From the IMG/VR virus record IMGVR_UViG_3300045988_102028, positions 1 through 46,473 of that record: 46,473 nt of DNA; one strand, given 5' to 3'. The notes beneath the pieces were generated by a model, which saw only the letters and a list, made by a program, of their open reading frames with translations, did no database searches and was not told the DNA's origin. A program made the position numbers and the translations under genes. This document shows positions 5,002 to 31,431 of the stretch, one piece after another. The DNA comes from a virus. Within the stretch, counting starts at the first letter, position 1, and each line of letters starts with the position of its first letter.

Positions 5002-5502
5002 TTACCAACTCCACAATATGACTCCTACTTGTACGCCTATCACTGGCTGTAATCCTTGGGGCGTGTATCCAGCACCTACCCCAGCTGTCACGGCGAACCG
5101 GCTGCGGGCATGCGTGATCTGAGTAATGGTCCGATTGTAGGTCTCGATCCAGTCCAGCCGGGGCGCAAGCGTTCCGACAACCGGGCCGACCACGCGGGCG
5201 TAGTAAGTCGAATCGTGGTATTCCAGTGTCCGAACCGGGACCTCTATCTGTACGCTGTCCGGACCATTGCCGACCGCAACAGTTTGCACGACCGTATCCG
5301 CCGGAGCAAATAGTATCCGCGGGACATTGATAGACACCAACCTGTCGGAATGTATGACTGGTTGCGGCCGTTCATAGAAGACCGTATCGATGCGTACCTC
5401 GGTGCGTATCTCCACCGAGGCTGCTCCCCGGCGGTATCCCCAGCGGAAAAGCAGCGCCCCGGCGACAAGCATAGCAAGCAGGTATAAGGTCAGGCGTTTC
5501 AT
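5002..5502 (-). CDS. Membrane-anchored protein at the end of the lysis cassette (spanin candidate)
   Basis: Start moved to MKRLTLYLLAMLVAGALLF (ATG 5502), giving an ATGA overlap with the endolysin stop; N-terminal TM helix. The 5' extension in the ORF track overlaps the endolysin. Confidence 0.5.
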   Translation of the reverse strand: MKRLTLYLLAMLVAGALLFRWGYRRGAASVEIRTEVRIDTVFYERPQPVIHSDRLVSINVPRILFAPADTVVQTVAVGNGPDSVQIEVPVRTLEYHDSTYYARVVGPVVGTLAPRLDWIETYNRTITQITHARSRFAVTAGVGAGYTPQGLQPVIGVQVGVILWSW

Positions 5503-28898: not shown

Positions 28899-29624
28899 AT
28901 GGAAACAAATTACAAAGAGGTAAAAGACAGCCTTCTGTCTTTCGGGAAAAGCCATTCGGCCTGCCAACATGAATACAAACGCCTTTATGCGGCGGAAAGC
29001 GTAGAGAGTGTTATGGAGGTTGTCAAAGACAATTTTTCTTGGTGCTGTCAGTATAAAGACTTTGCGGATGTTTTGATGGCGCATCGGGATCAGTTTGCCG
29101 AACACAAAATTTGGATCAATACCTCCGTAGAAATCAATGAAGGCATCGGATACCTGCTGACGACAGAGGGCGAATTTAACGCCACGAGCCTGGAAACCTC
29201 GACGATCAACGCCCGGAGCTGGGGAACCTCGACGATCAACGCCCGGAGCTGGGGAACCTCGACGATCAACGCCGAGAGCAGGGAAACCTCGACGATCAAC
29301 GCCGAGAGCTGGGGAACCTCGACGATCAACGCCACGAGCCGGGGACCCTCGACGATCAACGCCCGGAGCCGGGAAACCTCGACGATCAACGCCCGGAGCC
29401 GGGAAACCTCGACGATCAACGCCGAGAGCTGGGAAACCTCGACGATCAACGCCCGGAGCTGGGAAACCTCGACGATCAACGCCGAGAGCTGGGGAACCTC
29501 GACGATGATTCTACTCACATCCACTATTGAGTGCCAAGTAAATAATAGCAGTATTGCTCGATACATCGCCGAAAATAGGGTTGTATTCGCAGACGGTTCA
29601 ATGAAGTTTGAGAGGCGAAAGTGA
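28899..29624 (+). CDS. Tandem-decapeptide repeat protein (TSTINA-x-S-x-x, about 11 copies)
   Basis: 241-aa ORF with a unique N-terminal domain followed by ARSWGTSTIN-type repeats. Confidence 0.7.
   Translation: METNYKEVKDSLLSFGKSHSACQHEYKRLYAAESVESVMEVVKDNFSWCCQYKDFADVLMAHRDQFAEHKIWINTSVEINEGIGYLLTTEGEFNATSLETSTINARSWGTSTINARSWGTSTINAESRETSTINAESWGTSTINATSRGPSTINARSRETSTINARSRETSTINAESWETSTINARSWETSTINAESWGTSTMILLTSTIECQVNNSSIARYIAENRVVFADGSMKFERRK
29179..29506 (+). repeat. About 11 head-to-tail copies of a 30-bp unit (g[ga]aacctcgacgatcaacgccNNgagcNgg)
   Basis: Read directly; the differences fall at the same three codon positions in each unit. Confidence 0.9.
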
Positions 29625-29632
29625 TAAAATAG

Positions 29633-29829
29633 GAGTGTGTGGCGGAATGGTAGACGCTATTAAGCAGTAGCCCTCTGCTCTTACCTCAGACCCGTAGGAA
29701 ATGACGGGTGTCGGCTCAGGCGAATCAGAGCAAACAAACGCATAACAGGAGGTACTGGTGCAATTCCAGTGTTAAAAGGAGCGAATGAGCAGCACAATGG
29801 GTATGCAGGTTCGAATCCTGCCACACTCC
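29633..29829 (+). ncRNA. tRNA-Leu-like gene with a branched insert of about 110 nt in place of the anticodon arm
   Basis: 5' GAGTGTG-TG-GCGGAATGGTAGACGC; 3' GCAGG-TTCGAAT-CCTGC-CACACTC-C; 147 nt in between. Confidence 0.6.
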
Positions 29830-30826: not shown

Positions 30827-30886
30827 AAAACAGGTCGCGGACGCCTCAAAGTTCGCACGTTTGCATTTGGAGATAGTAGTTTGCGT

Positions 30887-30920
30887 CGCCCGTCATCCGT
30901 GAGGCCCGCGGGCGATATTT
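30887..30920 (+). terminator. Hairpin plus T-run after 30569..30826
   Basis: TCGCCCG-(14 nt)-CGGGCGA followed by TATTTT. Confidence 0.5.
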
Positions 30921-30921
30921 T

Positions 30922-31035
30922 GGAGGGTTAGCCCAGCGGATAGAGCGGTGCAGGAATGCGAAACAGAAACAATCGGGGGTTGCGAGACCCCGCATTTCCG
31001 GGCGCAGGACGGGAGTTCGAATCTCTCACCCTCCG
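30922..31035 (+). ncRNA. tRNA-shaped gene with the anticodon arm extended into a rod, an A-rich internal loop and an apical hairpin
   Basis: GGAGGGT-TA-GCCC-AGCGGATA-GAGC ... GGGAG-TTCGAAT-CTCTC-ACCCTCC-G, with 64 nt between the D and T arms. Confidence 0.6.
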
Positions 31036-31181
31036 CAACCCCTTTGTTGATGATGCAAGTAGAGCGACGATAGCGCAAGGGATTATTGCCGATTGCGCGG
31101 CAATGGCAAAGCGGAACAGACGCTTGACTCTATCGGACAGATTATACGAAAGCATCTGACGGCCGGGAAAGACCGGCACTT

Positions 31182-31252
31182 TGAGCTATAGTGTAACGGC
31201 AACACACCGCCCTTTGGAGGCGGTACTCCCGGTTCGAATCCGGGTGGCTCAA
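31182..31252 (+). tRNA. tRNA-Gln (anticodon UUG)
   Basis: TGAGCTA-TA-GTGT-AACGGCA-ACAC-A-CCGCC-CTTTGGA-GGCGG-TACT-CCCGG-TTCGAAT-CCGGG-TGGCTCA-A. Canonical 71-nt cloverleaf with the U1:A72 pair typical of bacterial tRNA-Gln. Confidence 0.85.
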
Positions 31253-31431
31253 CAGGGTACAATCCCTACGTTGTTAGTTTGATCGAGAGACCATCCAATC
31301 AACGGAAGCGAAAGAGAAGGTGTGACCTTCGAATATCCGACGCCGCGTGAAGCATAGTAGCAAGGCCGAGGCGGACGCCCACGAAACGGGCAAAGAACGC
31401 AAACCGGCGGTGCGGAATCCGTGTCGCCACC

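Follow-up and report, generated by a model that had tools for sequence, protein, structure and literature searches.

A phage tRNA-shaped gene in which a conserved extended arm replaces the anticodon arm

The tRNA-like domain of tmRNA with its P2 helix and the YrlA or Y-RNA-like mimics each combine a mimic of the tRNA top half with a long helix and have a non-decoding role. In tmRNA, the P2 helix departs from the core of the tRNA-like domain, there is no D stem, and the molecule has a G3·U70 pair, pseudoknots and a tag open reading frame (ORF); YrlA is circularly permuted, with its ends lying within the Ro-binding helix. In the engineered tRNA scaffold of Ponchon and Dardel (2007), a payload RNA reportedly replaces the anticodon arm of a tRNA, and cellular tRNA enzymes are said to process and protect the product. 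The species 1 RNA of phage T4 (rnaC), a stable phage RNA of unknown function that is encoded among tRNA genes, carries a T arm of the tRNA type (CCGGG-TTCGAAT-CCCGG) as well as a helix resembling an acceptor stem. In the conflict between bacteria and phages, tRNAs have also come to hold a central place: tRNA cleavage is common among defence systems, with documented cases of attack on the anticodon loop or on the whole anticodon arm, and phages answer with replacement tRNAs that resist cleavage by means of altered or shortened stems (PMC10264068, PMC11555353, PMC12445682). The present work concerns a 114-nucleotide (nt) gene, E2, at positions 30922-31035 of a 46,473-nt phage sequence (IMG/VR record IMGVR_UViG_3300045988_102028, analysed at its full length and called the window below), in which a tRNA body carries a 58-nt arm where the 17-nt anticodon stem-loop would be. 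We describe the architecture of E2, its conservation and covariation in related phages, the lack of a conserved anticodon loop, and the cassette-like exchange of the gene in a fixed slot.

With canonical tRNA (RF00005), E2 shares the acceptor stem of 7 base pairs (bp), U8, the GG of the D arm, the TTCGAAT T loop, a 5-nt variable loop and the lack of an encoded CCA; it differs in the length of the arm, in having no assigned anticodon, and in that the family to which it belongs (the E2-type family) conserves the arm and not the acceptor identity. The placing of a payload in the position of the anticodon arm is the design of the engineered scaffold. That scaffold is a laboratory construct, whereas E2 is natural, conserved and found on several top halves, and is presumed to be processed; the E2-type family would be the natural counterpart of the engineered molecule. 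T4 rnaC differs from E2 in having a 5′ extension and no recognisable D arm or comparable extended arm, and it showed neither sequence similarity nor a match to the covariance model of the E2-type family (R1, see below). Like the cleavage-resistant phage tRNAs, E2 is phage-borne, sits in a variable locus and has a changed anticodon arm, and a tRNA-Ser(ACU) that occupies the E2 slot in sister phages has an arm of the resistant kind (4-bp stem, 9-nt loop). Such tRNAs still decode and replace depleted host tRNA, whereas E2 is without a usable anticodon. The features that set tmRNA and YrlA apart from tRNA are all absent from E2, which gave no ARAGORN or Rfam match to either. A catalogue of structured-RNA candidates from IMG/VR mentions 'tRNA or tRNA-like' candidates in general terms (PMC10690425), and the architecture of E2 is described neither there nor in the literature found by full-text searching. 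The known kind to which E2 belongs is that of the tRNA mimics or tRNA-like non-coding RNAs, and a family with a conserved extended arm is new.

Architecture of E2 and of the E2-type family

The sequence of E2 is GGAGGGT-TA-GCCC-AGCGGATA-GAGC-G-(58-nt arm)-AGGAC-GGGAG-TTCGAAT-CTCTC-ACCCTCC-G, and the arm, with a rod of 7-8 bp, runs in the order GTGC/A/GGAATGC(G)/AAACAGAAACAATC/(G)GGGG-TTGCGAGA-CCCC/GCAT(T)TCC/GG/GCGC (Table 1). The acceptor stem, the D arm and the T arm with its TΨC-type loop are those of a tRNA, and the C48-like base of the variable loop could form a Levitt pair with G15, as judged from general tRNA architecture. A first-pass annotation of the window had placed these three parts where we find them and had taken all of them to be normal; the D stem proved to contain one C·A mismatch, which is confined to the window copy, the D stem being otherwise invariant across the family. 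The 'A-rich internal loop' of that annotation is a one-sided bulge, with the 3′ strand passing directly from the apical stem into the rod, and the last G of the rod had been counted twice.

ARAGORN made no call on E2, and only the neighbouring tRNA-Gln(UUG) at 31182-31253 was called; the canonical tRNA that would have contradicted the earlier interpretation was thus not detected. The alignment of E2 to the Rfam tRNA model, with 50 nt inserted in place of 9 model positions, scored above the gathering score of 29, and the match was absent from a run over the whole window with default filters. Even though E2 passes the Rfam threshold, it is not classed as a tRNA, since the defining feature of the anticodon arm fails: the usual distance from the core is not occupied by a canonical anticodon stem of 5 bp that closes a 7-nt loop with U33 and a purine at 37. 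Because tRNA finders miss the element, such genes are unannotated. A stop-free frame (30955-31160, +), found by eye, leads from an ATG in the rod through the rest of E2 into the spacer. No gene was called there in identical ENA/Logan contigs, and the frame is not conserved among family members; it is regarded as accidental.

Table 1. Positions of E2, of its parts and of related features. Coordinates without a prefix refer to the window; those with a prefix refer to the named locus. R denotes a purine.
Feature	Position	Strand	Remarks
E2, whole tRNA-shaped gene of the E2-type family, 114 nt	30922-31035	+	Rfam tRNA model, 37.2 bits; own covariance model R1, 112.4 bits
E2 acceptor stem, 5′ strand GGAGGGT	30922-30928	+	Partner 31028-31034; seven Watson-Crick pairs
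E2 D arm, GCCC-AGCGGATA-GAGC	30931-30946	+	G18/G19-type GG; one C·A mismatch (12-23)
E2 outer stem, 5′ strand GTGC	30948-30951	+	Normal anticodon-stem position; partner 31002-31005 (GCGC)
E2 unpaired A	30952	+	Faces G-R (31000-31001); 1x2 internal loop between C-G and G-C pairs
E2 rod, 5′ strand GGAATGC(G) (GGAATGCG)	30953-30960	+	Partner 30991-30999 (C-GCAT(T)TCC, one bulged T)
E2 one-sided A-rich bulge, 14 nt (AAACAGAAACAATC)	30961-30974	+	
E2 apical hairpin (G)GGGG/CCCC	30975-30991	+	4-bp stem; loop TTGCGAGA
E2 rod, 3′ strand GCATTTCC	30992-30999	+	
E2 outer stem, 3′ strand GCGC	31002-31005	+	
E2 variable loop AGGAC	31006-31010	+	AGG invariant across the E2-type family
E2 T arm, GGGAG-TTCGAAT-CTCTC	31011-31027	+	Rfam tRNA model alignment
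E2 acceptor stem, 3′ strand ACCCTCC, with discriminator G31035	31028-31035	+	CCA not encoded
Terminator-like hairpin TCGCCCG...CGGGCGA, then TATTTT	30886-30921	+	Ends one base before the start of E2
tRNA-Ser(ACU)-like gene in the E2 slot	L001:4411-4495/4496, L002:3078-3163, some 40 further loci		Syntenic to window 30922-31035
tRNA with a 'four-base anticodon' (taca), other relatives	L008:863-937		
E1, 197 nt, tRNA-Leu-like body (GGCGGAATGGTAGACGC D arm), ~120-nt insert	29633-29829	+	Slot also in L001, L117, L131, L133, L135, L136
E3, 97 nt, tRNA-shaped; anticodon arm is a 16-17-bp rod with a 4-6-nt loop	32536-32632	+	Rfam tRNA model, 50.3 bits, with a 34-nt insertion

The first relative of E2, a 112-nt gene with the same arm and another acceptor stem, was found in a scan for the constant ends of a neighbouring slot. 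The set was then extended by pattern scans anchored on the arm sequence, by R1, a covariance model built from nine variants, and by R1 searches of the collected loci. The resulting E2-type family, a previously undescribed family of phage tRNA-shaped and, by the reasoning given below, non-decoding RNAs with a conserved extended arm, comprises 24 distinct variants in 78 locus instances, every one of which comes from human-gut phage contigs; the contigs number about 75 and belong to uncultivated phages. No member was found in GenBank phage records, in an R1 search of 80 prophage loci from GTDB genomes or in a pattern scan of GTDB genomes, and exact-pattern scans for the window copy gave no match in IMG/VR and JGI metagenomes. 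The identical 114-nt sequence was present in five independently assembled places in ENA/Logan (12 contigs read), each time with the same 85-residue protein encoded upstream. Certain phages have two E2-type copies approximately 2.6 kb apart and no canonical tRNA. In this two-copy group (L158:2178-3308, 5154-5495), one copy has a TnpB (IS605 OrfB / Cas12f-like) gene 1.1 kb upstream of it, and the two copies are separated by a gene for a pentapeptide-repeat protein, an arrangement that is not general to the family.

All variants follow a common plan: a 7-bp acceptor stem, UA, the D arm, G26, a 4-bp outer stem, a 1x2 internal loop (A versus G-R), a rod of 7-8 bp, a bulge of 13-16 nt in the 5′ strand, an apical stem of 3-4 bp with an 8-9-nt loop, AGGNN, the T arm and the 3′ strand of the acceptor stem. 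U8, A14, the D-loop GG, the TTCGAAT sequence in the T loop, the variable-loop AGG and the pairing within both acceptor stem and T stem are conserved in the tRNA body. They are the very features on which the L shape of a tRNA depends. In the internal loop, neither A31 nor G79 varies (numbering of the first sequence), and the partner position is G or A. The bulge always starts with AAA[C/G/T]A[G/A] and is otherwise variable, and the apical loop has the frame U-Y-[RNN]-A-N-N with a variable triplet (GCG, GGA, GAA, GCA or AGA). Six different acceptor 5′ strands occur across the family, and the discriminator is G, C, T or A among members that share a single arm. We also considered whether triplets in the bulge resemble codons (CAG/CAA in the window, UAG in others, beside the tRNA-Gln); the pattern drifts between variants and is not robust.

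Structural selection on the arm and the lack of a conserved anticodon loop

In a first MAFFT alignment of nine variants, 97.8% of the pair cells were paired and nine pairs were changed on both sides, a result matched by none of the shuffles (0/500). When 15 distinct variants were aligned to the model, 96.6% of the pair cells were paired and 16 of the 31 pairs showed a two-sided change, as compared with 5.3 ± 1.8 in shuffled controls (0/500 reaching the observed count) and 1-3 in slid controls. The double changes fell in six of seven acceptor pairs, four of five T-stem pairs, five of the 11 pairs of the outer stem and rod, and one of four apical pairs. RNAalifold, run on an independent MAFFT alignment not fitted to the model, recovered the acceptor, D, outer and T stems, the first 4 bp of the rod and the apical hairpin, and RNAfold gave the same outer stem and rod for the middle of the gene in 14 of 15 variants folded singly.

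The exchanges can be followed at individual pairs. In the outer stem, 12 variants have G-C and three have A-U at pair 27-85, while at pair 30-82 there are 14 with C-G and one with U-G; in the apical stem, pair 57-70 is A-U in seven, G-C in six and G-U in two; in the rod, pair 34-77 has gone from A-U to G-U in six. There are three types of rod, GGAAUGCG/GCAUUUCC, GGGAUGCG/GCAUUUCC (A-U to G-U) and GGGUACGG/GCGUAUCC, and one lineage has the outer stem AUGC/GCGU and the rod GGGUACG/CGUAUCC in place of the usual GUGC/GCGC and GGAAUGC/GCAU(U)UCC. The results showed that the payload in the place of the anticodon arm is under structural selection, with compensatory or wobble changes in the outer stem, the rod and the apical stem, and that the tRNA top half and elbow are likewise maintained by selection, the acceptor and T stems covarying while the D arm and core are invariant. 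The replacement of the anticodon arm by a rod, as proposed in the first-pass annotation, is thereby borne out: homologous phages retain the rod, and they do so through compensatory and G·U-compatible changes. As the one-sided changes are G·U-compatible on the plus strand only, selection acts on the RNA, and a mere DNA palindrome was rejected as an explanation.

A conserved canonical anticodon loop was not found among the 24 variants. No caller assigned an anticodon to E2, in agreement with the earlier statement that no usable one is present; the stronger statement that none can be drawn did not hold, since the 7-mer UUGCGAG of the apical loop offers a U33-like base, GCG and an A37-like base. 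The distance of this 7-mer from the tRNA core is too great by ~13 bp, its closing pair is G·A, and the homologues do not keep it in this form. From the architecture of the arm and the missing loop we infer that the E2 RNA is unable to decode.

It is conceivable that E2 encodes the precursor of a decoding tRNA from which the extra arm is spliced out by an unknown route, the apical loop or the rejoined flanks then serving as the anticodon loop. Extended anticodon helices are typical of intron-bearing pre-tRNAs, and the helix of E2 recalls them; moreover, the apical loop of the window copy (U-U-GCG-A-G) accompanies a tRNA-Arg-like D loop (GGAUAGAGC). As a displaced anticodon, the loop nevertheless fails in the homologues, where the apical stems are 3-4 bp and the loops 8-9 nt long, the U33 position is occupied by C in one lineage, and neither the acceptor stem nor the discriminator, which vary freely for one arm, bears any relation to the triplet. 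We also tried all joinings of the flanks into a 7-nt loop. Only the window copy gave a passable one (A-U-UCC-G-G), and the joined loop failed in the divergent lineage and in the neighbouring E3; no excision yields a 5-bp stem and 7-nt loop with U33 and a purine at 37 across the family. E2 contained no bulge-helix-bulge or helix-bulge-helix motif and no group I or other ribozyme match, and the isolated 66-nt insert stretch matched no Rfam family, and hence no known RNA class, even at E <= 10. The phage ORFs yielded neither an RNA ligase nor an RNA endonuclease. An intron within a tRNA is expected to be less conserved than its exons. Here the arm and the D arm are near-invariant, with the caveat that the searches were anchored on the arm, while the acceptor and T stems are replaced, which is the opposite of the expected pattern. 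Splicing to a decoding tRNA is therefore improbable. A mobile insertion was rejected for another reason, namely that the anticodon loop is absent and not split.

The intact acceptor/T minihelix and elbow bring up yet another possibility, a chargeable tRNA-like RNA that is used off the ribosome or in the manner of tmRNA, for example by binding SmpB or EF-Tu; the long helix of E2 leaves the core at the site of the tmRNA P2 helix. However, aminoacylation identity, i.e. discriminator and acceptor pairs, is not kept within the family: the discriminator may be G, C, U or A and acceptor sequences differ, so that no single synthetase identity is retained. G3·U70 is not conserved, the arm has no conserved reading frame, tag or stop, a D stem is present, and ARAGORN found no tmRNA. 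Of the explanations considered in this work, we hold this one to be the least probable.

Exchange of top halves and arms, and the possible role of the RNA

The closest IMG/VR relatives of the window phage have, in the same slot, an 85-nt type II tRNA that ARAGORN assigns to Ser(ACU). It matches E2 in the upstream hairpin, the downstream flank, the acceptor stem and the T arm, and its 9-nt loop (CUUACUAAU) holds both UUA and CUA. Other relatives have the tRNA with a 'four-base anticodon', and a further gene in these or the neighbouring slots is a 95-nt type II tRNA-like gene with the loop CAUAACUAA. The Ser(ACU) and 'four-base anticodon' tRNAs may be of a cleavage-resistant or suppressor type (compare PMC12445682, PMC13092985). 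Since the ends and flanks of the window copy match the resident tRNA-Ser-like gene and its middle belongs to another family, E2 of the window is a chimera of a resident top half with flanks and a foreign middle. The breakpoints lie exactly at tRNA positions 7/8 and 48/49, where only a few bases of homology are shared. One bottom half (D arm, extended arm and variable loop) was found with six different acceptor/T top halves, and, conversely, one top half occurs with unrelated bottom halves (e.g. window 30922-31035 versus L001:4411-4495; also L117, L158, L168 and L083).

The slot of E1 behaves in the same manner, with one constant top half and at least seven unrelated middles: the acceptor stem and T arm GAGTG[C/T]G...C[G/A]CACTC enclose middles of 95, 112, 120, 154, 197/201, 208 and 221 nt, which matched no Rfam family other than tRNA. 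In the E3 family, the rod is kept in all six variants from related phages (6/6) despite more than 10 variable positions, and one variant has a compensatory change from G-C to U-A in the T stem. The first-pass annotation had attributed one design to E1, E2 and E3. The design is indeed shared, while a comparison of the inserts showed that they are not homologous to each other; the arm of E3 has no sequence kinship with that of E2. That genes trade top and bottom halves so cleanly is uncommon in evolution and calls for an explanation, and the combination of this modular exchange of top halves and payload arms with the presence of several such families within one phage group is to us the most interesting aspect of the locus.

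The chimeric structure of the window copy, its D-stem mismatch and its unremarkable fold energy could also be those of a dead gene, i.e. a recombination scar or a decaying tRNA pseudogene. Against this, 24 variants exist on several phage backbones and six top halves with their helices kept by compensatory change, and at least five independent assemblies contain the window copy unchanged. We consider a dead gene very improbable.

We favour the explanation, to which we would assign a probability of roughly 0.45, that E2 is a non-decoding tRNA mimic, a natural 'tRNA scaffold' that is probably matured by host enzymes and has the conserved arm as its working end. RNase P, the 3′-processing enzymes and the CCA-adding enzyme recognise the acceptor/T-side half of tRNA, and since this is the conserved half, excision and stabilisation in the manner of a tRNA would be expected. 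The top half, made up of the acceptor stem, the T and D arms and the elbow, is an intact tRNA module; according to this scheme, E2 would be transcribed together with the early/accessory region of the phage, and RNase P, 3′ trimming and CCA addition would excise and finish a stable L-shaped RNA. The arm extends for ~13 stacked bp beyond the normal anticodon position, so that the RNA would presumably be too long to contact the decoding centre and the peptidyl-transferase centre at once, and a role in translation would for this reason not be expected. A specific partner would be contacted by the conserved arm, in particular by its outer stem, A/GR loop and rod and by the GAAA with which the bulge begins. 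Our best guess is that E2 serves as an adaptor or decoy aimed at a factor that acts on tRNAs, such as a defence nuclease with anticodon arms as its target, and that it belongs to an exchangeable collection of unusual tRNA-like genes in these Bacteroidales phages. A role of the tRNA mimic in phage-host conflict is favoured because the same and neighbouring slots of sister phages hold tRNAs with abnormal anticodon arms, because the slots turn over like accessory or anti-defence loci, as in the E1 slot with its many middles, because both anticodon-cutting defences and resistant phage tRNAs are documented, and because some neighbourhoods hold accessory genes.

Several points weigh against this explanation. 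The single-sequence fold of E2, with a minimum free energy of -39.6 kcal/mol (z = -0.68), is no more stable than those of shuffled sequences, so that the rod could not be established from one sequence, and the mismatch sits in the D stem of a single, invariant window copy. The count of double changes in 15 variants rests on an alignment fitted to the model, and five of these changes (rod pairs 35-76, 36-74, 37-73 and 38-72 and outer-stem pair 27-85) stem from a single lineage. Because the searches were anchored on the arm, its apparent conservation is inflated and is in part due to ascertainment. A partner protein was sought by co-occurrence, and no gene was found to co-occur specifically with the element: the sole ORF cluster common to all subtypes appears to match a backbone gene, which is also present in phages without the element. 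As regards the decoy, which we arrive at by inference, its logic would predict a top half matching host tRNAs; the published phage counter-measures are cleavage-resistant replacement tRNAs and not decoys, and competitive protection was explicitly not found in one study (PMC12445682).

The main competing explanation is that E2 is a base-pairing regulatory RNA built on a tRNA scaffold, the bulge and/or apical loop of which pairs with phage or host mRNA or tRNA. The C4/CI immunity RNAs of P1, P7 and P4, which are processed by RNase P, are an established precedent for phage antisense RNAs, and the variable loops of E2 would in like manner set the specificity. The bulge and the apical triplet are indeed variable exposed parts within a conserved frame, and an antirepressor is encoded in the window. 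On the other hand, a search of the window turned up nothing complementary to the bulge or to the apical loop beyond chance, which led us to reject an antisense target within this stretch of the phage, and conservation is highest in the double-stranded rod and not in the loops. A regulatory RNA of this kind is thus unlikely, although it is to be placed above the spliced tRNA, the pseudogene and the chargeable non-ribosomal tRNA, all of which are less likely.

If the tRNA mimic is regarded together with its neighbours, one may speculate that temperate phages of gut Bacteroidales (Alistipes-type hosts) possess a modular toolkit of tRNA-scaffolded RNAs for counter-defence or host manipulation, such as decoys or shields against immunity directed at the anticodon arms of tRNAs. 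In this reading, which we consider doubtful though worth stating, interchangeable top halves are combined with unrelated but individually conserved arms, i.e. the E2 arm, the 16-17-bp rod of E3 and the 95-221-nt inserts of the third slot. Should it be true, the toolkit would represent a new class of phage effector RNA. A conserved phage tRNA body freed from decoding would add a second strategy, tRNA mimicry, to that of resistant replacement tRNAs, and the frequency of the family in human-gut viromes is high enough for a direct test in metatranscriptomes and Alistipes lysogens.

Genomic setting and neighbouring features

The window phage is temperate and siphovirus-like, with an integrase, a tape measure protein, an HK97-type capsid protein, a portal and a terminase, and its prophage relatives reside mostly in metagenome-assembled genomes of Alistipes/Rikenellaceae and other Bacteroidales. 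E2 lies in an early/accessory region, flanked on one side by small helix-turn-helix (HTH)-like ORFs (including one of 82 residues) and on the other by a module for recombination and replication that encodes a YqaJ exonuclease and a replication initiator. Within 3 kb here there are four tRNA-shaped genes, all on the plus strand: E1, E2, the tRNA-Gln and E3. The accessory genes of some other family neighbourhoods encode, for example, pentapeptide-repeat proteins and methyltransferases.

Bacteroidota-type promoter motifs (TTTG...TAnnTTTG) occur six times in the window as against 0.92 expected, and none was found directly upstream of E2. Since, in addition, the terminator-like hairpin abuts the gene, expression of E2 would need read-through and processing; the same hairpin also precedes the tRNA-Ser(ACU) of the sister phages.

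Just upstream of E1, the ORF at 28899-29624 contains eleven tandem 30-nt units (29178-29506, +; 90% matches) and on account of these codes for a protein of 10-residue repeats, the sole Pfam hint being a weak one to DUF2807, below the cut-off. Beyond E3, motifs of the GCCAAACT type recur in the region 32686-32847, which also has a long inverted repeat (GGGGAGTTTGGC/GCCAAACTCCCC), to which Rfam matched only a microRNA-like hairpin at a sub-threshold score (28 bits versus a gathering score of 53). Directly downstream of E3 (32653-32683, +), there is one of the Bacteroidota-type promoter motifs (TTTG-N-TAnnTTTG).

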